Below, in pieces: positions 35,937 to 64,000 of a stretch of 64,000 nucleotides of DNA. Both the position numbers and the translations under genes were made by a program. The stretch covers positions 320,001-384,000 of the forward strand of contig CAWEQH010000004.1 of the NCBI GenBank assembly GCA_963811165.1. Reading direction: 5' to 3'. This DNA comes from an uncultured Nitrospiraceae bacterium (GTDB taxonomy: Bacteria > Nitrospirota > Thermodesulfovibrionia > Thermodesulfovibrionales > UBA6898). The stretch's first letter is position 1. Each line of letters starts with the position of its first letter. Under the pieces are notes generated by a model. That model worked only from the letters and a program-made list of their open reading frames with translations, did no database searches and was not told where the DNA came from.

Positions 35937-37237
35937 TAAACGTAGGGATTATAGGATTTGGAACAGTAGGAACAGGGACTGCAAGCATCCTCTTAAAAAA
36001 CAGAGACCTTCTACGGGAAAGGACCGGTGTCGACATTAACCTAAGGAGGATAGCGGACCTCGATACCAAAAGGGACAGGGGTATCAGGCTCCCAAAGGGG
36101 GTCCTTATCGCCAAGGCGGAGGAACTCCTCGGTGACCCGGATATCCATATAGTGGTCGAACTCATCGGCGGCACGACGGTCGCAAAAGACCTGATACTCA
36201 AGGCAATCAATAGCGGCAAACATGTTGTCACGGCGAACAAGGCCCTTCTTGCCACTTACGGGGCTGAGATATTCAGGGCAGCGGGCAAACGGAACGTCGA
36301 GTTGGGGTTTGAGGCGTCTGTTGCCGGAGGTATCCCTATTGTAAAGGTCATCAGGGAGGGACTTGTGGCCAACAGGATAAAGGCGGTGTACGGCATCATC
36401 AACGGCACCACTAACTATATCCTTACTAAAATGACAGAGGAAAAGGCGGAATTTGCCGAAGTCCTGAGGGAGGCACAGAAGCTCGGTTATGCGGAGGCAG
36501 ACCCTACCTACGATATAGAGGGGATAGACTCGGCCCACAAACTCGCAATCCTTGCCTCGCTCTCTTACGGACCCCGGTTCAGCGTCAAGGACGTGTACCG
36601 TGAGGGCATCTCCTGGATTTCCCCGATGGACATAGAATTTGCCCGCGAGCTCGGATATAAGGTCAAGCTTCTGGCGATAGCAAAAGAGTCCGACGGCAAA
36701 GTCGAGTTGAGGGTCCACCCCACGATGGTACCGGAGGAATATCTCATTTCAAAGGTTGACGGCGTATATAACGCTGTCTACGTAGAAGGTGACGCCGTGG
36801 GTTCGACCCTTTATTACGGCAGGGGCGCCGGGGACATGCCTACGGGGAGCGCGGTCGTCAGCGATATCGCAGAAATAGCGAGAAATATCGTCACCAACTC
36901 CGTCGGGAGGATCTCGCTGGACTCTTCCCGGAGGGCCAAGAATCTCATGAAGATGGACGATGTCCAGTCTATGTATTACTTCAGGTTTTCTGCGATTGAT
37001 AAACCGGGCGTATTATCGAAGATCTCCGGAATACTAGGTAAGTATAATATAAGTATTGTTTCTGTCATCCAGAAGGGCCGGCGAGAGGGGAAGGCCGTGC
37101 CGCTCGTCGTCCTTACCCACAGGGCAAAGGAAAAAAATGTCCTTGCTGCGCTCAAGGAGATAAACAGGCTTTCTATGGTGGCGGACAAGAGCGTTTTTAT
37201 CAGGGTTGAAGGGAAAGAGGGAGACCGGCAGCCCTAA
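35933..37237 (+). CDS. hom: Homoserine dehydrogenase with ACT domain
   Basis: [34 protein letters not shown]. Confidence 0.97.
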
Positions 37238-37316
37238 ATTATAGAACCATACGGTGGACATCCCCTTCGCTCGGGTTATTCCCTCGCGATGGGGAACCTT
37301 GTCCTCGTATGGCTCC

Positions 37317-37499
37317 AGAATAACTAATTGCGATACCCCAGATTCGGGAAACCCTGAGCTTTTTTATAATATGGGTGCTTCGATAGATGCTTCAGGCTTC
37401 CTCTTTCGAGGCATGCTCACCACATCCAACTCCCGCTCCCTAAACTCAGTAGCTTGATCCTCTGGTTTACCCGCCCGGGGTAACGCAAGCTCTCTTTCT
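37317..37499 (-). ncRNA. ssrS: 6S RNA (copy B)
   Basis: ~183-nt rod: closing stem TTGCG-TACCCC-CGGG-AAACC pairs with GGTTT-CCCG-GGGGTA-CGCAA; central bubble; GGGAGC...GCACCCA; distal TGGTGAGCATG-CCTC-GAAA-GAGG-AAGCCT, which resembles E. coli 6S as I recall it. Confidence 0.8.
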
Positions 37500-37505
37500 A
37501 ATTTC

Positions 37506-37534
37506 ATTGTAGCTCGCTATTATGGATTCGTCAA
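37506..37534 (-). promoter_or_regulatory. Sigma70 promoter of 6S RNA copy B
   Basis: TTGACG-N17-TACAAT, about 7 nt upstream of the RNA 5' end. Confidence 0.75.
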
Positions 37535-37739
37535 GAACGAAATCGGCCAGGCAGTATCTCTAAACTGAGACACAACTATAGGCCATGGGCCATATAGAGA
37601 ATCCAGTGTTTTCAGGGACTTTTGAATTTGTCTCGCCAAAAGATGAGGCTCATATTGATTTTGCGTGAATATTGAGATATGTTTATAAAGGACGGTTTTG
37701 ATTTGCTGTTAATCGCACCTTAAAAGAAGGAGGGAAATC

Positions 37740-54769: not shown

Positions 54770-56048
54770 ATCGGCCCTTATTCAGTACCACGGGCAGCTC
54801 TATCCTGAAAACCGCTCCATTGGCTGGTTTGCTCTCGAGTCTTATGCGCCCTCCAAGAACCTTTGTGAGCTTGTCGACGATCGCAAGCCCCAGGCCCGTT
54901 CCTTTCGCCTTCGTAGTAAAAAATGAGGTGAAAGCCATGGACTTCGTCTTTTCGTCCATGCCGCACCCGTTATCGCTAATTATTATAATGATTTTATCTC
55001 CCGCCTGTTGTGCAGCAAGTTCGATAAGGCCCCCCTCATTCACCGCATCGGCAGCGTTCTGGAGTATGTTGGAAAGTATCTGCTTCAACTTTTCCCTGTC
55101 CGATACAATCATCGTGTCCACAGGGATTGTTGTATTGACCGTTATGACGGTCTTTTTCACTCGGTCCGATTCTTCTAATACTTTTACCGATTCATTAACC
55201 AACTCACGCAGACTGAATTCTTCTATCCTGACTTCTGAAGGTTTCGCATACAGAAGCAGTTCCTCCGTCAAACGTTCGAGTCTTCTTGCTTCATCAACAA
55301 TAACACCGAGCTCTTCTTTGCCTGTCTCACTTTTTTCCGTAAGATACTGGGCGAAGCCCTTGATACTCCCGAGAGGATTCCTGATTTCATGAGCAAGAAC
55401 TGCCGCCATTTCTCCGATAACGGCAAGTCGCTCTCTTTCCGCCATCATCGCAGTGAGTTTGTCGGACCGCCTCAATGCCTTGATAAAGAAAAAAACCATG
55501 CCCCACAGGACGACGACTGTGATAAAGATACTTATGGCCTGGAGCCTGGCCTGCCGCGTAATGTTCTGTGCTGGATAGGGATGAAGGGCAAGTCTCAGGA
55601 CCTTGACCGAATCCGGCGTATGTATCGGATAATTGAGAATGAAGATCTCCTCGCCGGTCCCAAGAGTCATGCGGCCGAATACCGGCTTTCCCTCTCCAGC
55701 GGAACGTTTGATGTCCGGCGAATCAATGCGTCGTCCCACCAGATTTTTATTGGAGTGAAGAAGGGTCAGCCCGCTCTTGTCATAGAGCGCGATAAAGGCA
55801 ATGCCCTCCCAGGACGAATCTGCGACAATCTCCTTAAAGATGCCTTCTTTTAAATGTGCCTCCTGCAAGGAAGGTTCGAGACTCACCGCCATGCCCAGTG
55901 CCTCAAGCTTAAGGGATTCTTCTGCCGCCTTAAGTGAATTCCGGTAGATGATAAAAGTGCTAAGCAGCGTCGTAAAGGATGCGACTGCTATAATAATGAT
56001 GAAATAAATATGGGTTTTCTTAGGTCTCTTTTCTCCTGCGTCGGACAT
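54762..56048 (-). CDS. Sensor histidine kinase (ZraS-like)
   Basis: Two TMs, AHEIRNPL, FFTTK, GTGLGL. Confidence 0.94.
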   Translation of the reverse strand: MSDAGEKRPKKTHIYFIIIIAVASFTTLLSTFIIYRNSLKAAEESLKLEALGMAVSLEPSLQEAHLKEGIFKEIVADSSWEGIAFIALYDKSGLTLLHSNKNLVGRRIDSPDIKRSAGEGKPVFGRMTLGTGEEIFILNYPIHTPDSVKVLRLALHPYPAQNITRQARLQAISIFITVVVLWGMVFFFIKALRRSDKLTAMMAERERLAVIGEMAAVLAHEIRNPLGSIKGFAQYLTEKSETGKEELGVIVDEARRLERLTEELLLYAKPSEVRIEEFSLRELVNESVKVLEESDRVKKTVITVNTTIPVDTMIVSDREKLKQILSNILQNAADAVNEGGLIELAAQQAGDKIIIIISDNGCGMDEKTKSMAFTSFFTTKAKGTGLGLAIVDKLTKVLGGRIRLESKPANGAVFRIELPVVLNKGRYE

Positions 56049-56248
56049 ATATTTGAATTATAGACCAAAAAGTTCAATTTGACTCAAGCCGCCTCTTGCT
56101 CTCCGAATAGAGACAAAAATTCTGGCAACTGGCGATAAATTGAACGCGCCAAACGTTGCCATGGTCTCATTTAATCGACTCCAGTTCCCTCACCCCTTAA
56201 ACGACTCCAGCGCCTCCTTAATGACACGCATCCGGACAGCCCATATAC

Positions 56249-56941
56249 CTACTGCAGCGAAGCGCCGGTCTCATTTGTTTCAGTGCAAAGACCGGCCTTC
56301 TTTGCTTCTTTTAAATGTTCGCAATTCCCGAATTTACAAGCTTGTTTCCAGTCCGAACACGCCAACTCCGCATGGAGACTCCCCCGGATGTCATACACTG
56401 CGGCGCTGCCCGATTGGATCTGGAGCGACCTGTTAAGGTCCAAAAGAGCAAGGTCGAATTGCCCTCTTATGGCATAAGTAATCCCACGATTGTATAAGAC
56501 CTTTGAAGCGTTGGGATCTATACCGAGGGACTTTGTGAAATCGGCGATGGCAAGGTCGTATTGGCCCTTCTTTGAGTAAGTAATTCCCCTATTATTGTAT
56601 GTCTCCGCGGACATTGGAGCGATGTCGAGCGCTTTATTGAATTCTGAAAGGGCGAGATCGTATTGGCCTTTTTCCGAATAGGCAACGCCCCGTTCATTGC
56701 AGCCTTTAGCTTCAAGGACGTCCCGGTCGAGTGCCCCATCGATGTCGCGTGCCGAATCAAGCATCGGTTTCTGAGAAGTTTCGCCGAGGGATGCAACTTC
56801 AACAGGCGTCCCGAAGGTCTTCATGTTTGCCTCTTGCGCAGAACTGCTTGCCGAGCCTATCGATAACAGTATGGCCTGCAACAAAATAACGCAGAGTATG
56901 TTTCTGCGCATTATACTTTGCGTGAGCTGACACTTATGCAT
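56249..56941 (-). CDS. Exported TPR protein
   Basis: YNNRGITY..KGQYDLAIADF repeats. Confidence 0.85.
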   Translation of the reverse strand: MHKCQLTQSIMRRNILCVILLQAILLSIGSASSSAQEANMKTFGTPVEVASLGETSQKPMLDSARDIDGALDRDVLEAKGCNERGVAYSEKGQYDLALSEFNKALDIAPMSAETYNNRGITYSKKGQYDLAIADFTKSLGIDPNASKVLYNRGITYAIRGQFDLALLDLNRSLQIQSGSAAVYDIRGSLHAELACSDWKQACKFGNCEHLKEAKKAGLCTETNETGASLQ

Positions 56942-57290
56942 AGTAAGAACTCCTTTTGCGGATCTCTACAGCAGGGGGCTTCGCATATATGTCCCCGCAA
57001 TTTATCAAGCGGTAAACACCTCGTCGCAACCGGAGGGCACTGGCCTGACGAGGCGTTTATCGCAGCGCCTCAACGGCGCATTCATTAATTTCTTATATGG
57101 CAAGACGATGAATGCAAGTAGTCGGTTACAATATTTCCCCCTTACCGGTGGGGAAAATAATTCTTCAGGACAAACATGATTCGAAAATATTTTCTGCTGT
57201 TACCGCCTTTCGTATATGAGTTGAGATGCTCTTAGCAACTCCAAAGGCTGAAACAAGCATTCGGTTGCATTTTTTTCGGGACTGCACCGA

Positions 57291-57509
57291 TTATGAAGAA
57301 ACGTCATTTGCTGCATGAAACACCCTCTTTCTCAGGGGATAGTTAGCCATCGCCATATCGTTTTCGTAGAGATATTCCGATAGGGTAGGGCAGAGTCTGA
57401 AGGTCTTCTTAAAACAGTATGTTTCCATCCTCTCAATGCTTGGAACATACCTTGATTCCGATGCACTGCAGGTTCCGATGTAGCCTTCGTCAAAGTAGGG
57501 GCAGCTCAT
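57291..57509 (-). CDS. Cys4 mini-protein (MSCPYF family, copy 2)
   Basis: True start is ATG 57509 after GGAGG; C-x10-C-x17-C-x7-C. Confidence 0.85.
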   Translation of the reverse strand: MSCPYFDEGYIGTCSASESRYVPSIERMETYCFKKTFRLCPTLSEYLYENDMAMANYPLRKRVFHAANDVSS

Positions 57510-57564
57510 ACGTACCTCCCGTAAAACTGAATTGAAAATGATCTTATGGCGAAATAGTAACATC

Positions 57565-57592
57565 CAATTATGAACATAATTTGAATTTGTGA
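57565..57592 (-). promoter_or_regulatory. Conserved upstream motif of MSCPYF copy 2
   Basis: 28/28 identity with 32344-32371. Confidence 0.8.
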
Positions 57593-57661
57593 ACGGGATA
57601 AGGGAAACTTTCGATTAAATCTATTTAACCTGATGCGGGTGGGCACACTCGACCCGTCCTC

Positions 57662-58630
57662 TCAACTTCGAAACGCCTCCATCGCCTCCTTAACGACCGC
57701 ATCCGGACAGTCCGTGTATCTGGGTGAGATATGCGACACAAAAAGGTTTTTCACCCCGGCATCCTTCGCGATAAGTCCGCATGTCTTTGCGGTAAGATGG
57801 GACCTTTCTTTTGCCCGCTCCCTGTCTTTATCGAGGAAATAGGCTTCACAATAAAAGGCGTGGGAGCCCCTCGCAAGTTCCGAAAGACGGGCGATATTCT
57901 TTACGGTTGCGGCAACGTCGGTGGCGAACGTGATCTTCTGCCCCTCCGTGATGTGAGCGATATCCCAGAGCCTGTCCATGCGGTAATGTTTCCCCGATAT
58001 CTCCACGGTGCTTTCAGCGGGTGCATTTCTTCTCAGTGCCTTCTTAAATTCACTGAGCCACGGGCCTACCTCCAGGTCCTTTCTCATCAGACGGTCTTTG
58101 TCGATATTAATATGGGACTCTTCCTCGATCGAATATGCCAGACACGGGGTGCCGTGCGACAGCCTCGCCGCCTTTACCCGAAACAGGGGGTCTTCAAGCA
58201 GTGTTCCGTCCGAAACCGACTCCGAGACATCCTCCCGCTTGAACCCGTCATGCGCCTTAAAAGCGGAATGGGCCAGGAACTTGCCGTCATAGGCAAAAAC
58301 GTGTATCTCAAGCGGGTAGTCCCTGATGAGGTTCCATGTGTATCCTCTTAGCTTGCCTGCGACGCAGCGCGTAATGTTTCGGGGGCCGTATATATTTAAC
58401 GGGATTTCCCTTCTCAGGACGGCCCGTAAGAGGGAGTCGAACCCGATGAAGTGGTCGATATGGGTATGGGTCACGAAGACATCGGTGATCTTGTAAATCT
58501 CAGACGGGGCCAGCCCGCTTATGTCCCCCAAATCGAATTGCACGGCCCGTTTTTCCCTTAGTATCCTGATAAAGAGGGCGGGGTCTCCGAAGAGGTCGTT
58601 TATCAGTCTATACCGGAATATCGGTTCCAT
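57662..58630 (-). CDS. Ribonuclease Z-like metallo-beta-lactamase
   Basis: THTHIDH, CEAYF, SHLT and SHISPRY motifs. Confidence 0.85.
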   Translation of the reverse strand: MEPIFRYRLINDLFGDPALFIRILREKRAVQFDLGDISGLAPSEIYKITDVFVTHTHIDHFIGFDSLLRAVLRREIPLNIYGPRNITRCVAGKLRGYTWNLIRDYPLEIHVFAYDGKFLAHSAFKAHDGFKREDVSESVSDGTLLEDPLFRVKAARLSHGTPCLAYSIEEESHINIDKDRLMRKDLEVGPWLSEFKKALRRNAPAESTVEISGKHYRMDRLWDIAHITEGQKITFATDVAATVKNIARLSELARGSHAFYCEAYFLDKDRERAKERSHLTAKTCGLIAKDAGVKNLFVSHISPRYTDCPDAVVKEAMEAFRS

Positions 58631-58687
58631 AAGTAATTATAGAGTATTATGTGTACAATATCGGACGTTTCGGCTGTGTTAAGAGTT

Positions 58688-59079
58688 TCATATAATACCT
58701 CCTCCCAACCCGATAGCAATTCCAAAAACCATTACTGATACAATAATCTGTATTGTACGCATAGTGACCTTCTTGACCAACCGATTCCCTAAGAATGCTC
58801 CCAAGAATGCGGAGACGACAGCCGCAGGCAAAAGGAAACTGCTGTTGCCGATACCTGCCGGCGAAAAGTGGTACTGTAGATGAGTAGTCTCGAAAAATCC
58901 ACCAAACAGGCTATGACAACACCCGTTGCAACAAATCGTTCTTTAGATGACCCGCTTCTGATGAGAAATGCACTGCGCAAAGCCCCCTGATGTCCCGAAA
59001 GTCCACCGAAAAAACCACTCAATATCCCGCCAAGCGGCAGATACTTTTTTTCAAACGATATTTTTTCAAATGTCGGCAA
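58688..59079 (-). pseudogene. TauE/SafE (TSUP) family transporter, 5'-truncated and frameshifted
   Basis: [24 protein letters not shown]-terminus SAFLGAFLGNRL...GGGII* lies in another frame. Confidence 0.75.
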
Positions 59080-59306
59080 ACATCTCTAAGGCAGCAGCAG
59101 GAAAGGCTCTGGATTCTTTTGTTGACGGCATCAAGAAGACCCTGAAGAAAGGCAACAAGGTAACGCTGGTAGGATTTGGAACCTTCTCAGTTGCAAAAAG
59201 GGCTGCACGGAAGGGTAGGAATCCCAGGACGGGAGAAGTAATCAGAATAAAGGCTTCCAAGTCTCCTAAATTCAAGGCTGGGAAGACATTCAAGGACGCT
59301 ATCTAA
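59070..59306 (+). pseudogene. hup: HU DNA-binding protein lacking its first helix
   Basis: [34 protein letters not shown]; the usual MNK.ELI... start is missing. Confidence 0.8.
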
Positions 59307-59316
59307 GATCCTTCCG

Positions 59317-59727
59317 ATGCATTGGGATTTTACGCCTGAAGATGTCCTGAACGGTAAAGCTCATTATAACGTTGCCCAATTCAGGGATGATCTGCTCAAG
59401 GAAATAAGGGAAACAGTAGGACAACACCGAGACGGGGAGAAATTTACCAAGTTCTATTCCATCATAACTGTCATGCTTCTGACATCCCTTGCTCTCGGTA
59501 AATCCACGGATGGCTTTGTTGCCTCCGTGCAGAAATATTTTCCAAGTAAGGAACTGCAACAACAACTTACGAAACGTGAACTGCTAGACCAGATACAGGA
59601 TACCAACAAGGAAAACATTGAAATGCTGAAGGCTGTCATTCGCAGACGTATTCAGGATGATACAGCTATCGGGATTGAATCTAGCTGCGTTACCAAAACC
59701 ATTACATCGGAGCTGATGACGTTTTAA
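59317..59727 (+). CDS. Hypothetical protein
   Basis: 136-aa ORF, no recognised motif. Confidence 0.55.
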   Translation: MHWDFTPEDVLNGKAHYNVAQFRDDLLKEIRETVGQHRDGEKFTKFYSIITVMLLTSLALGKSTDGFVASVQKYFPSKELQQQLTKRELLDQIQDTNKENIEMLKAVIRRRIQDDTAIGIESSCVTKTITSELMTF

Positions 59728-60112
59728 GTAATACTTTGCCTGAAAGAAGGTCTAGTTGTTGACCATTCTTTAAAAGTAATTCTGCTTTTGTTATATGCCA
59801 ATTCCTCTTTTCTGTATTTAATTCTAAAAAGGCTTTACCATCATGATTCGATCCGTGAACAACAAAAGTAAACTTTGCTTTCCCTTCAGCGCTGCGATTA
59901 TTATGCACCTCAAAACTATCAAAAGCGGCCAATGCTATTTTTTGAGGTTTACCCACATTATCTTTCACCCTGCTGTTATTCATTAAAAATTGTATTGAAA
60001 ATAGATATGGTTCTGATCGTAAAACCATGAAGCGGCTGTAAAGTTGAAGCAATGTAAACGTAACAATGACTATGAGAAGAACAATGCTTCCTTTGCGAGA
60101 TAATATTTTCAT
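59702..60112 (-). CDS. Membrane-anchored hypothetical protein (Coa1-like)
   Basis: N-terminal TM, SEPY, V...VG.P, G.A.F...V.G pattern. Confidence 0.6.
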   Translation of the reverse strand: MKILSRKGSIVLLIVIVTFTLLQLYSRFMVLRSEPYLFSIQFLMNNSRVKDNVGKPQKIALAAFDSFEVHNNRSAEGKAKFTFVVHGSNHDGKAFLELNTEKRNWHITKAELLLKNGQQLDLLSGKVLLKTSSAPM

Positions 60113-60164
60113 AATTCCTTCAGGGGTATGATACCAAATTGTTTAGCCGCTGGGTTGCAAAACA

Positions 60165-60216
60165 CTCAAAATATTCTCAAAATATTCTTGACATCCTTCC
60201 AGGAAAGGAATATAAA
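60165..60216 (+). promoter_or_regulatory. Sigma70 promoter with tandem 11-bp direct repeats abutting the -35
   Basis: CTCAAAATATT x2 (60165-60186), then TTGACA-N17-TATAAA (60188-60216). Confidence 0.75.
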
Positions 60217-60222
60217 TAAATT

Positions 60223-60386
60223 GAAGGCAGACTTCACCAAGTGGTGGTTTTGCTCTTCTCAGTTCAGCATTAAAGGTTTAGGACTGAAGAACGTTATGCC
60301 TGGATGAAGAAAAGTTCTGGCAAATGTTCACAAGGTGCTTAAACCGCTGGGCAAGGGAAGAAGCAAACACCACTTTTAAGCAGAAG
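60223..60386 (+). ncRNA. Rod-shaped structured leader upstream of 6S RNA copy A (unknown)
   Basis: Six nested helices between 60239 and 60375; no long ORF; starts at the predicted TSS. Confidence 0.6.
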
Positions 60387-60557
60387 GAAGTCAATGCCTT
60401 GGAATGGGTTAAGGCTTAGAACTAAGTCAATTGGTTAGGAAGCGGGAGCAAGATGTGGTGAGCAAGCCCCCAGCAGCAAGGGGGAAGCCTAAAGCATCTG
60501 CCGAAGCATCCACTAAAAAAGACTCTAAGGATACCCAGCACCAAGGTGTTGTACTTC
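60387..60557 (+). ncRNA. ssrS: 6S RNA (copy A)
   Basis: Closing stem GAAGT-CAATGCCTTGG-TGGGT pairs with ACCCA-CCAAGGTGTTG-ACTTC, followed by T8; distal domain homologous to copy B with compensatory changes. Confidence 0.75.
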
Positions 60558-60602
60558 TTTTTTTTGACCTATCAGAAACAACTTTTTTTCGGAGGCATTT
60601 CT

Positions 60603-60812
60603 ATGGCGGAAACAATAATCTATGGCAAGGCGGGTTGACCCTATACCGACAGGGCTAGGTCAGCCTACAACACAGCACAATATTTTGATGTGAAACAAGA
60701 CCCCATTAGACTTCAGGAAATGCTCCTGCATTCCAAAGGAGCCAGGAAAGTACCAGTCATTGTTGAAGGCGGCAAAGTATCAATAGGTTATGGGGGATCG
60801 TGAGGGGTTTGA
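60603..60812 (+). CDS. Glutaredoxin-like selenoprotein with two Sec (UXX-star type)
   Basis: MAETIIYGKAG-U-PYT...RKVPVIVEGGKVSIGYGGS-U-GV*; TGA at 60636 and 60801; RBS GGAGG; a hairpin follows each TGA. Confidence 0.85.
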
Positions 60813-60855
60813 TCCCGATAGTTTGTCGGGAAATAAATAACTGGAAGGAGAAAAG

Positions 60856-61131
60856 ATGGTTACTTCAATTATTCTCATGAATGTTGAAAGAACAAAAATC
60901 AACGAAGTAGCTGAACAACTGGCAGCAATGGATGGGATATCTGAAGTCTATTCAGTTAGTGGAAATTATGATCTGGTTGCAATTGCCCGTGTTCCATCAA
61001 CTGATGACCTTGCAAATCTTGTTACTAAAAAAATGGTCAGTATTAACGCCATTTTGAAATCAGAAACAATGCTAGCATTTAAGGCATTTTCACGTCACGA
61101 CCTTGAAGCAATGTTCTCTATCGGAGAGTAG
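60856..61131 (+). CDS. Lrp/AsnC ligand-binding-domain protein
   Basis: EVYSVSGNYDLVAI; RBS AGGAG. Confidence 0.88.
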   Translation: MVTSIILMNVERTKINEVAEQLAAMDGISEVYSVSGNYDLVAIARVPSTDDLANLVTKKMVSINAILKSETMLAFKAFSRHDLEAMFSIGE

Positions 61132-61155
61132 GGATGGGTATATCGGACTAACCCA

Positions 61156-61515
61156 TTACTTTTTCTTCTTCACCAGCCTATAGACAAGCCACACAATAGC
61201 AATAAAAATAATACCTGGCAGCAGTAAGAATGCCATAGGCATCAAAGGAAAAAACAACATAATAAACACGACAAAGACTATTGATAGCACCATAGCCAGG
61301 ATGAAGACGGATGGAATCAATAACACCAGCACCACCGCCAAGATAACCAAGCCCAAATACGCAGCAAGATAGCTGCCCACACTGGTTACATGCTTGCCAT
61401 TTATTGTTATTGTTGTGCCTGTCGAGAAGTTGATTACGGATACCAGCATCAACATGCCGATTACGATCAATAGTATTGTTTTCTTATTCATTATCATGCT
61501 TTTGATATGCTCCAA
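61156..61515 (-). CDS. Hypothetical membrane protein
   Basis: Highly hydrophobic 119-aa ORF. Confidence 0.65.
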   Translation of the reverse strand: MEHIKSMIMNKKTILLIVIGMLMLVSVINFSTGTTITINGKHVTSVGSYLAAYLGLVILAVVLVLLIPSVFILAMVLSIVFVVFIMLFFPLMPMAFLLLPGIIFIAIVWLVYRLVKKKK

Positions 61516-61660
61516 TTCTTGCCGACCCTAATCAAATGGCAATACTCTACCATAATTTTAAACGAGAGTTTACAACGGCTTTTTGAATTCATTGTGAAGA
61601 ATGCAAAAAATTATGCAGGTAATGAAAATAGCTGGTAAATTCTTCAAGTCTAGTAGTAAG

Positions 61661-61680
61661 TTCAAATTGTCTTCACAGTT
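61661..61680 (+). promoter_or_regulatory. Degenerate upstream motif of MSCPYF copy 3
   Basis: TTCAAATTGTCTTCACAGTT versus TTCAAATTATGTTCATAATT (16/20), at a similar distance from the ATG. Confidence 0.65.
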
Positions 61681-61733
61681 AAGTGGTAACTTGTACGTCA
61701 TGAAAAGCGTCTTGAGTATCAAAGGAGGTATAC

Positions 61734-61925
61734 ATGAGTTGCCCTTATTTTGAAGAAGGATACATCGGCACCTGTGGTGCATCAGAAACTAAGTATGTTC
61801 CGAGAATTGAAAGGATGGAGCAATACTGTTTTAAGCAGACATACATACTATGCCCGATCTTGTCGGCATCAACAGCTTTAAATGTTAGGAGGTTCAATAA
61901 TGGCGACTATATTGGTTGTAGATGA
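61734..61925 (+). CDS. Cys4 mini-protein (MSCPYF family, copy 3)
   Basis: Same Cys spacing; RBS AGGAGG; overlaps the downstream receiver gene. Confidence 0.85.
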   Translation: MSCPYFEEGYIGTCGASETKYVPRIERMEQYCFKQTYILCPILSASTALNVRRFNNGDYIGCR

Positions 61926-62331
61926 TGATGTTTTAGTCAGAAGCGTCCTGAAACGGATTCTGAACATGAATCGGCATGAAGTCATTGAAGCCCAGGATGG
62001 GCAGGAAGTCCTTGAACTCATTGATCCAAATGCCCTGCCTGACCTAATCCTAATGGATCACAAAATGCCAAAACTCAGTGGTGTAGACTGTGCCAGACAA
62101 CTAAAAAAACTATACCCTTTCCTAAAGATCGTCCTGATATCTGGTTGTTTTGCTGTTGATGACGATGGTTATCTTGCTGCCGTTAAATATTTGTTCACAG
62201 GCATTATTTTAAAACCATTCCAAATTAAAGATGTGGTCAGTGCTGTTCAATATGCTCTTGGTACTAAGCAGGAATATCCCGTCCGTTTGCTATCCCGACA
62301 CATAGCCCAGGAAATAACAGGGGGGTGGTGA
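61900..62331 (+). CDS. Single-domain response regulator (CheY-like)
   Basis: ILVVDDD, DLILMDHKMP, ISG, KPF. Confidence 0.9.
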   Translation: MATILVVDDDVLVRSVLKRILNMNRHEVIEAQDGQEVLELIDPNALPDLILMDHKMPKLSGVDCARQLKKLYPFLKIVLISGCFAVDDDGYLAAVKYLFTGIILKPFQIKDVVSAVQYALGTKQEYPVRLLSRHIAQEITGGW

Positions 62332-62376
62332 TGTTTCCGAACTATTGGGGCTTGGCTGTGGTAGATTAAATCAAGC

Positions 62377-63192
62377 ATGAATGATGCAATTGAACTGAGC
62401 GACACAGGGACCACGATGCCAGCCTTGTTTGTGGGGCATGGAAGCCCGATGAACGCCATAGAAGATAATGAATTTAGCAGGGCATGGATTAAAGCAGGTC
62501 AGTCTTTGCCTATCCCAAAGGCGATTCTGTGCATATCGGCTCACTGGATGACAAATGGGACACGTGTGACAGCTATGGAGAAACCAAAGACGATCCACGA
62601 TTTCGGCGGTTTTCCCAAGGAACTCTATCAGGTTCAATACCAAGCTGAAGGTTCTCCTTCATTGGCTCGTCTGACTGAACAGACCCTTAAAAAAACAAAC
62701 GTGGAAATGGATTTCAACTGGGGGCTTGATCATGGTACATGGTCAGTCTTGTCCCGTATGTTTCCTAATGCCGACATTCCCGTTGTTCAACTCAGTCTTG
62801 ATGGTCACAAGGAACCACAAGCTCACTATGACTTAGGAAAAGAATTACGATCACTGAGGAATAAGGGGGTACTGATTGTGGGTAGTGGCAATATGGTTCA
62901 CAATCTCATGATGCTATCATGGGGAGACACTGCTTACGACTGGGCTGTAGAATTTGACGAGATCCTGAAGCAGTTGATCCTGTCAGGTGACCACGACTCA
63001 ATTATTCACTATCAGAAGTTTGGCAAGGCATCAGATTTATCCGTGCCTACCAATGAACACTATCTGCCTCTTCTCTATATCCTTGGACTTAAGGATCGTG
63101 ACGAGAATGTCACGTTCTTTGCTGATAAGGTCACGTTGGGTTCTATATCCATGCGTTCAGTCAGGATAGGCCGACCAGGATTAATGCCCTAG
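62377..63192 (+). CDS. ygiD: 4,5-DOPA extradiol dioxygenase (LigB family)
   Basis: FVGHGSPMNA, SAHW, GLDHGTW, GSGNMVHNL, EHYLPL. Confidence 0.92.
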   Translation: MNDAIELSDTGTTMPALFVGHGSPMNAIEDNEFSRAWIKAGQSLPIPKAILCISAHWMTNGTRVTAMEKPKTIHDFGGFPKELYQVQYQAEGSPSLARLTEQTLKKTNVEMDFNWGLDHGTWSVLSRMFPNADIPVVQLSLDGHKEPQAHYDLGKELRSLRNKGVLIVGSGNMVHNLMMLSWGDTAYDWAVEFDEILKQLILSGDHDSIIHYQKFGKASDLSVPTNEHYLPLLYILGLKDRDENVTFFADKVTLGSISMRSVRIGRPGLMP

Positions 63193-63423
63193 CTTCATTG
63201 CTATGAATATAATTATGCCAACCAAAATAAAGGTAGGAATCAGAAAGGAAAAAAGCATAGCCCAAGCACCTTTCTTGTTTCCTAAATTGAAAGTCCAACC
63301 CAGCACAGGATTTCTCTTGGGTACTATCCACCTTGTATCTTTCTTGGAGAAGTAAAAACCTGGGGATGTCCAATTATCTTGCTTTTCCCACTCTGATTTA
63401 TTAATCTGGTCAATGTCAGCCAT
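63181..63423 (-). CDS. DUF5808-like small membrane protein
   Basis: FYFSKKDTRWIVPKRNPVLGWTFN followed by a TM. Confidence 0.75.
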   Translation of the reverse strand: MADIDQINKSEWEKQDNWTSPGFYFSKKDTRWIVPKRNPVLGWTFNLGNKKGAWAMLFSFLIPTFILVGIIIFIAMKLGH

Positions 63424-63436
63424 GGGGTATTCTATC

Positions 63437-63820
63437 CTAATAAACAAAACCAACAACCAACAAATAACACCCGACAATCAACATGATTACGCCTACTGGA
63501 TAAATCACCACAGGACTCAGGTTGACCTGCTGGATAATCTTGTTTGATAAATCAAGCAGCAGTATCCCGAACGTTCCCTTGAACAATGCTCCCCACCCTA
63601 GCAGTGTTGCTAATCCCGCTGCATTCAACGTCCATTGATTCAGTACCGAAACACTTAAAGCCCCTATGACCAGCACAACAAAAAAATACAGGAATCTAGT
63701 GGTTTCATTCTGAAGTGCCTTGACCAGCCTGACATAAAACCCAGCATTGAACAGCATCGAGCATGACAATACAATCAAAATGATACCCCAGAATCTTATC
63801 ATGATTAAGGCAGGGTTCAT
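63437..63820 (-). CDS. Hypothetical membrane protein
   Basis: About four TMs; TLLGW..LFKG. Confidence 0.75.
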   Translation of the reverse strand: MNPALIMIRFWGIILIVLSCSMLFNAGFYVRLVKALQNETTRFLYFFVVLVIGALSVSVLNQWTLNAAGLATLLGWGALFKGTFGILLLDLSNKIIQQVNLSPVVIYPVGVIMLIVGCYLLVVGFVY

Positions 63821-64000
63821 TATGTCGTCCTGTTGCTGATTTCTTTTTTGGCTTCCACAGTCTCGGCTGTTTCCTGCTTCTGCTCCATAGTGGTGGGGGA
63901 TGAAATTTCTTTAGGTGCTTCTTTTGCCTGGGGGGTAACGTTAATTTCCTTGGTGGCATCCGACATAGCACTTTTGAATTCTCTCATAGCCTTGCCCAAT
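63820..64000 (-). CDS. TatA/TatB-family subunit, C-terminal part (start is outside the window)
   Basis: LGKAMREFKSAM amphipathic helix followed by a charged tail. Confidence 0.7.
   Translation of the reverse strand, partial: LGKAMREFKSAMSDATKEINVTPQAKEAPKEISSPTTMEQKQETAETVEAKKEISNRTT

Follow-up and report, generated by a model that had tools for sequence, protein, structure and literature searches.

A multicopy small RNA family missing from Rfam adjoins a divergent 6S-like RNA in Thermodesulfovibrionales and is probably transcribed with it

Sponge RNAs of the CsrB/RsmZ type are multicopy, carry their own promoter and terminator, and contain a repeated internal motif. The FopS small RNAs of Bacteroides, which go with the RRM protein RbpB, are described in the available part of their report (PMC11697453) as 65 to 70 nt long, with a single-stranded seed, and as pairing with mRNAs. 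A pair of 6S RNAs, ssrSA and ssrSB, is co-transcribed in Bacillus thuringiensis, and the second has no promoter of its own, according to the accessible text of PMC7726162. The features by which a 6S RNA is defined were taken here from the accessible portions of PMC3923129 and PMC11077062.

The DNA analyzed in this work, which we call the window, comprises 64,000 nucleotides (positions 320,001 to 384,000, forward strand) of contig CAWEQH010000004.1 in assembly GCA_963811165.1, from an uncultured Nitrospiraceae bacterium (Thermodesulfovibrionales; UBA6898). The genome to which it belongs (G000) is 95% complete. The features of the locus under study are collected in Table 1. We consider it reasonably probable that they represent two adjacent small-RNA genes, one for a rod-shaped RNA and one for a 6S-like RNA, which likely give a single RNA of ~340 nt by transcription past a weakened terminator; polymerase binding is predicted for the 6S part, and the rod would act as a decoy.

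Table 1. Features of the locus, in window coordinates
Feature	Position	Strand	Description and basis
Sigma70-type promoter TTGACA-N17-TATAAA	60188..60216	+	Promoter of the rod-RNA cassette; -35 at 60188-60193, -10 at 60211-60216; sequence
Short 5' segment	60223..60238	+	Stretch between predicted TSS and rod stem; contains the 12-mer complementary to the 5' strand of 6S
Rod RNA	60239..60375	+	Uncatalogued multicopy sRNA family; fold, covariance models R1/R2, covariation
Shortened U-tract (T4) and purine-rich linker	60374..60386	+	Predicted leaky terminator, possible processing site
6S-like RNA	60387..60557	+	Third paralogue clade, 6S-C; RF00013 match, consensus fold, tree
Central bubble of 6S-C, about 60421-60437 / 60512-60523	60387..60557	+	With closing stem and conserved apical duplex
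T8 tract	60558..60565	+	Predicted terminator after the 6S closing stem; listed as terminator-like site
UXX-star selenoprotein family 1 gene	60603..60812	+	Two in-frame TGA; translation with TGA = U; NF041114
Small Lrp/AsnC ligand-binding-domain gene	60856..61131	+	PF01037

An earlier note on this DNA had read the locus as a single noncoding transcript of ~340 nt starting near position 60223, a 6S RNA behind a rod-shaped leader. The near-consensus promoter that it placed ahead of the unit is present, with TTGACA, N17, and TATAAA all in the sequence; the consensus scanner missed it because the -10 element lacks the final T. The T8 tract taken for the end of the unit was confirmed, and so were both folds. 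The helices listed for the 5' half form as described (-60.2 kcal/mol; z = -6.4; none of 200 shuffles reached this stability). The 3' half, a 171-nt fold with a closing stem (z = -4.5), aligns with the whole length of the RF00013 model and scores 40.4 bits (E = 1.4e-5), below the gathering score of 46.4. The whole RNA folds as two independent rods (z = -7.5). That one RNA of ~340 nt is made is likely, and its start is a prediction from the promoter.

What had been read as a leader is a small RNA in its own right, ~140 nt long, multicopy, uncatalogued, and belonging to one order of Nitrospirota. G000 has four copies: the one in the window, one at C8, where a promoter, the rod, and a UXX-star gene are followed by a second promoter and a 6S-like RNA, and two at C1 with no 6S nearby. 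By a covariance model, 43 of the 54 family genomes contain the rod (1 to 8 matches each, a few of which are reverse-strand echoes), and an improved model found it in 32 of 151 genomes of the order, representing 6 of its 13 families. In a sample of the phylum, for which the best 21 candidates per genome were scored, only G000 and three genomes of one sister family matched, a weak indication that the rod is absent outside the order. An exact pattern applied to all species genomes returned 66 stretches. The titles of 65 name Nitrospirota (Thermodesulfovibrionales, Ca. Sulfobium, Dissulfurispiraceae, and the like), and that of the remaining one names an Acidobacteriota bin. At least 104 distinct rods were collected from metagenomes separately from the genome set, and counts from this collection refer to the matches listed. 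What the earlier note took for a leader matches no Rfam family (searches of window positions 55000-64000 and of sets of 14 and 16 loci; E up to 3) and is conserved in relatives. We found no description of the rod in the literature; the supplements of large structured-RNA surveys could list it.

The -35 element stands at the same distance from the rod in 93 of 100 metagenome copies with enough flank, among the matches listed, and the same promoter type precedes the rods derived from genomes. Their surroundings vary. No shared family emerged from the 71 of 109 downstream ORFs or the 92 of 103 upstream ORFs in which one was sought, the commonest neighbor families being ferritin (4), NiFe hydrogenase (4), and YchF (3), and 66 of 109 downstream ORFs are encoded on the opposite strand. 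Varied neighbors and opposite-strand downstream ORFs therefore indicate a trans-acting RNA rather than a leader. Most copies stand solo with their own promoter and terminator, a result that overturns the view of the rod as a 6S leader. We also rejected a riboswitch or attenuator leader, because there is no steady same-strand downstream gene family and the alternative helix discussed below is neither conserved nor covarying (a 5- to 7-bp core recurs); a small ORF, because 1- to 2-nt indels are frequent and no frame is kept in the alignments; and a replacement for SRP RNA, because G000 has a normal SRP RNA elsewhere.

Some loci depart from the usual layout. Tandem pairs of rods, each with its own promoter, occur at L013, L045, L119, and L150, and the second rod of L150 is fused to 6S-C. 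At L014:1802-1894, a 93-nt rod that keeps the closing domain only is convergent with a free-standing 6S-C.

Scattered copies (1 to 8 matches per genome), near-invariant terminal inverted repeats, and varied neighbors would also suit a selfish or near-neutral repeat of the MITE or REP kind, and the short 5' segment could in principle make the rod an antisense small RNA. We regard this pair of explanations as highly improbable. The promoter lies outside the inverted repeats and is nevertheless kept in those 93 of 100 listed metagenome copies; covariation extends along the rod; only 2 of 92 ORFs upstream of rods have transposase or integrase domains; and no match was found in phages or plasmids. 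In viral contigs there were two pattern matches, neither of which was scored by the covariance model. The 5' segment that an antisense RNA would use is variable in sequence and in length (14 to 21 nt in homologues), and that of the window can also fold on itself.

Rods fold strongly, with a median z of -6.2 over 115 copies, 94 of which have a single hairpin as their minimum free energy (MFE) structure; most are 120 to 170 nt long and the shortest is 93 nt. A structure of 50 pairs, placed on 65 aligned copies, has 86% of cells paired. Compensatory changes occur at 30 of the 50 pairs; none of 500 shuffles reached as high a value, and slid controls gave 35 to 54%. The structure was derived from the pairing probabilities of the same related sequences, so this significance is overstated. 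The terminal helix is nearly invariant and does not covary. Periodicity marks the interior, where peaks fall at lags of 7-8, 14-15, 22-23, and 29-30, and the motif GAYGUA occurs 1.51 times per rod compared with 0.05 times in shuffled sequences. A 15-nt unit is present in two or more copies in 75 of the 104 metagenome rods among the matches listed, compared with 0 of 104 shuffles, and in up to six copies in genome-derived rods; a metagenome search with a repeat-specific pattern found nothing. The family's clearest form is seen at L085:1501-1652, L086, and L105, whose interiors consist of five to six near-perfect 15-nt repeats. The rod of the window has 0 recognizable units and is a member of a subfamily whose internal 15-nt tandem repeats have decayed. 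A K-turn was rejected, because the C/D-like motif of this subfamily is, by eye, not kept in other subfamilies.

The rod shape, the periodicity of 7 to 8 nt, and the near-invariant paired terminal helix, together with a strong linkage to 6S-C and a similar promoter class, might be taken to mean that the rod is a second DNA-mimic RNA, whose regularly spaced internal loops bind polymerase or another DNA-binding protein. The earlier note had raised a version of this, a second promoter-mimic RNA. We think it decidedly unlikely, as the consensus has no central bubble of the 6S type and its largest loops measure about 5 nt, as lengths range from the usual 120 to 170 nt down to 93 nt, and as the rods match neither 6S nor any other Rfam family at E up to 3.

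We tentatively propose that the rod is a protein decoy, its near-invariant closing helix and 15-nt repeats being binding sites of a titrated protein; this may well prove wrong. The proposal is based on the many copies, the constitutive-type promoters, the repeated units, the invariant helix, and the lack of a conserved seed. In the rod of the window the repeats have decayed, so that only the closing domain would stay active. The rod fold is predicted to place the 15-nt repeats in paired regions, in keeping with the 94 of 115 single-hairpin MFE structures, and a single-strand sponge therefore fits poorly. Identity with CsrB/RsmZ was rejected because GGA is not enriched (1.42 per rod compared with 1.59 in shuffled sequences) and a CsrA gene was found in 0 of 54 family genomes, and identity with Y RNA was rejected because G000, at its 95% completeness, has no match to a Ro60/TROVE gene.

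G000 encodes Hfq, one RRM protein, and eight cold-shock-domain matches. An RRM gene occurs in 31 of 32 rod-bearing genomes and also in 75 of 119 rod-less genomes; it adjoins a rod in 2 of 92 upstream ORFs (L080 and L092) and in 0 of the 104 metagenome rods among the matches listed. Cold-shock (csp) genes lie near 6 of those 104 listed metagenome rods, in four arrangements (L232, L269, L279, L282, L285, and L329; post hoc P of 0.001 to 0.005 for the four arrangements), and near none of the genome-derived loci. Both adjacencies exceed a rough expectation and are suggestive, though unreplicated between the two data sets. As partners, both candidates were set aside: the RRM protein because its adjacency was not replicated (2 of 92, then 0 of 104 among the matches listed) and rod-bearing G076 has no RRM match, and the cold-shock protein because its adjacency was not replicated and the 15-nt repeat is absent from csp leaders. 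The repeat is absent from RRM leaders too, and repeat motifs show no clear excess near start codons. Since csp genes are present in 149 of 151 genomes, their phylogenetic profile is uninformative. The CspB consensus, as given in the available part of PMC1904285, fits only some of the repeat variants.

A side observation concerns the leaders of these genes. The RRM gene and most csp genes (L180:1400-1460; in G000, L212 and L214-L216) have a leader with a short hairpin followed by a terminator-like hairpin and a U-tract, which from its sequence is a candidate attenuator. RRM genes are described as autoregulated via their leaders in the accessible portion of PMC13370968.

The 3' partner belongs to an expanded set of 6S-like genes. 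G000 encodes a canonical 6S RNA (77 bits) and three weaker 6S-like loci, and 6S matches, 1 to 4 in each, occur in 52 of the 54 family genomes. In a tree with modest support, the weaker loci form groups B and C, distant from canonical 6S. The window's copy is of the 6S-C group, other copies of which score 30 to 42 bits against RF00013. The consensus of 17 copies has a closing stem and a central bubble with about 13 unpaired columns per strand, and the single-sequence MFE structure of the window's copy partly closes this bubble. We predict that the 6S-C part binds sigma70 RNA polymerase. The window also holds a 6S-B gene with its own promoter, on the minus strand at about 37311-37495 (locus 37230-37535); 6S-B has a 3' hairpin domain of ~90 nt, the closing helix of which recurs in 15 of 15 homologues folded. 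A literature search for 6S paralogues in this order found no description.

In the window, rod and 6S-C are likely transcribed as one RNA of ~340 nt from the promoter of the rod. The 8 nt after the rod stem contain 2 to 4 T's in 14 of 14 scored fusions and at least 5 in 191 of 194 solo rods, so that a shortened U-tract marks all of the scored fusions but only 3 of the 194 solo rods. Ahead of the window's 6S-C, the best match in a search for a promoter of its own was 6 of 12. Among 18 scorable genome copies of 6S-C, 7 have their own promoter and 11 adjoin a rod, and six further metagenome loci have the order rod, full U-tract, promoter, and 6S-C; fused and free versions coexist, even within G000. 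A 6S-like gene lies within 900 nt of 15 of the 104 metagenome rods among the matches listed, always in the same orientation, where about 0.08 would be expected; related genomes are not independent, so P values are overstated. The window also has a direct repeat at 60168-60193, just upstream of the -35 element, and the same 16 nt precede the promoter of the free-standing 6S-C at C8 of G000. These shared nucleotides ahead of both promoters hint at recombination between promoters.

RNA data came from six runs of three studies, which share 5 to 6% of the window's words and hence derive from relatives; five runs were compared. Contig cover of 6S-C was deep in five RNA runs of the three studies, a measure that stems from relatives' RNA and sums the paralogues. 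At L007, a fused locus in a genome of the same genus, RNA contigs cover rod and 6S, and cover is zero over the promoter and the downstream flank; the upstream gene has a cover of 2 to 5 in one run. The junction of L007 is bridged by several contigs (among them X2 record 6, without mismatch and at a depth of 89, and X6 record 30), and similar contigs bridge the junction at the window locus; such contigs cannot show single transcripts, ends, levels, or processing. In run X5, a 6S-C contig starts at an adapter-adjacent 5' end, which fits processing and a free-standing promoter alike. Another X5 contig (depth, 21.5), seen once, joins the 3' end of a rod homologue to its 5' end (window 60234/60376) and may represent either a circular RNA or a reverse transcriptase jump.

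Fused rods occupy at least five places on the rod tree, a scatter that could reflect repeated fusion or exchange of the rod interior. Repeated fusion would be in line with the possibility that the fusion is itself functional, in which the uncut two-domain RNA tethers a rod-bound protein to the polymerase held by 6S-C. The X2 junction contig is as deep as its flanking pieces, 6S-B too has an appended 3' hairpin domain in 15 of 15 folded copies, and 8 of 8 genomes with a near-full-length 6S-C match also carry rods. We nonetheless find a functional fusion unlikely: rod and 6S-C usually stand alone, the scatter is explicable by rod-interior exchange after one fusion (the 6S-C tree does not decide), and contig depth is no measure of processing. 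We also speculate, giving the idea some small chance, that Thermodesulfovibrionales have modular 6S RNAs, with an abundant repeat-bearing RNA placed 5' of one paralogue and a hairpin domain 3' of another; the uncut RNA would couple a protein-binding domain to sequestered polymerase, and a transient leader helix would time its folding.

The leader helix was the core of the original proposal. In this rival reading the 5' segment would be a switch or kinetic antiterminator; by pairing with the 5' strand of 6S it would hold back the closing stem and so gate either 6S maturation or read-through into the selenoprotein gene. The 12-nt complementarity between 60224-60235 and 60387-60400 is real, and the duplex (12 bp, -16.5 kcal/mol) was equaled by 8 of 2,000 shuffled leaders. 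Its predicted occupancy is 0.79 to 0.97 for window transcripts ending from 60402 to 60546, and in 10 of 13 fusions a transient pairing of 0.75 or more is predicted just before the closing stem completes. AGGCA is found in 11 of 14 fused leaders compared with 17 of 183 solo leaders, and at L009 and L251 the leader-6S pairing is longer by one base. Of the two mutually exclusive folds that had been claimed, the alternative is predicted only as a co-transcriptional intermediate: it lies 14.5 kcal/mol above the MFE structure with a pair probability of 0.0 at full length, and its predicted occupancy once the closing stem is complete is about 0 (0 to 0.12 in 13 of 13 complete fusions).

Comparison of fusions makes a switch quite unlikely. 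The full 12-bp helix is confined to the window's copy, and the duplexes of the other 13 fusions range from -3.7 to -14.3 kcal/mol; cognate duplexes are no better than noncognate ones (-9.0 versus -8.6 kcal/mol). L008 has a change on the 6S side without a compensating change in the leader, and no covariation was found in the alternative helix. The AGGCA motif occurs also in solo relatives of the same subfamilies, so this signal is confounded by descent. A leader-6S core of 5 to 7 bp is kept in most fusions and is predicted to form transiently. As for read-through, a local hairpin at 60536-60551 could terminate regardless, and the selenoprotein gene lies 3' of a fusion only in the window and in L290, where the helix is weak.

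The UXX-star gene itself matches NF041114 at 110 bits (cutoff, 72), and no promoter was seen in the 37-nt spacer before it. It is found directly 3' of a rod at 5 genome loci and at 6 of the 104 metagenome rods among the matches listed. That the gene usually follows the rod directly and not the 6S RNA argues against the proposed antiterminator; its expression is likely to depend on read-through, likely independent of a conserved antiterminator. A third UXX-star gene of G000, at C10:1115803, has neither rod nor 6S upstream. Also in the window are two small Cys-rich ORFs that are related and start with a shared N-terminal motif, at 57291-57563 (minus strand) and 61734-61925 (plus strand).

Our preferred reading, two adjacent small-RNA genes joined by a weakened terminator, suggests the following course of events. 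The fusion would have arisen by loss of a spacer bearing the 6S-C promoter. Transcription from the rod promoter would then pass the short U-tract of the rod into 6S-C, and a fraction of the ~340-nt RNA might be cut in the linker. The leader-6S helix would form only in passing during folding and give way to the closing stem, and the downstream selenoprotein gene would be reached by low read-through. The rod would titrate a protein through its closing helix and 15-nt repeats.

The rod represents a conserved multicopy small RNA family that Rfam 15 does not list, supported by covariation and covered in environmental RNA libraries. As many as four 6S-like genes, in three clades, are present in its lineage, and two of these carry additional RNA domains. 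Should the rod prove to be a protein decoy, it would constitute a sponge system in bacteria without CsrA, and the protein bound by it would be a new global regulator. The free, adjacent, and fused versions found in nature offer a direct test of why several 6S RNAs are kept and of what the appended domains do. The novelty of the locus is a different arrangement of 6S genes, built on an uncatalogued RNA family, and not a switch as first proposed.

With 6S RNA (SsrS, RF00013), the 3' half of the window's RNA shares length, closing stem, central bubble, and apical motifs; it differs in that G000 has four 6S-like loci in three clades and in that the window's copy scores below the gathering threshold. 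The ssrSA-ssrSB pair of B. thuringiensis, as far as the available text of PMC7726162 describes it, likewise has a promoterless 6S as the second member of a two-RNA transcript, whereas the first RNA here is not a 6S. Stable RNAs with paired ends, such as SRP RNA, Y RNA, and Ms1, resemble the rod in that respect, but the rods have no Rfam match. The rod is like CsrB/RsmZ in being multicopy with its own promoter, terminator, and internal repeats, and unlike them in that pairing is predicted for its repeats and GGA shows no enrichment. By genomic behavior, the nearest published analogue is FopS, which, in the part of PMC11697453 available, comprises lineage-restricted multicopy small RNAs with housekeeping-sigma promoters, as does the rod family; in contrast to FopS as described there, the rod is about 140 nt long, is mostly paired, and has no conserved seed.
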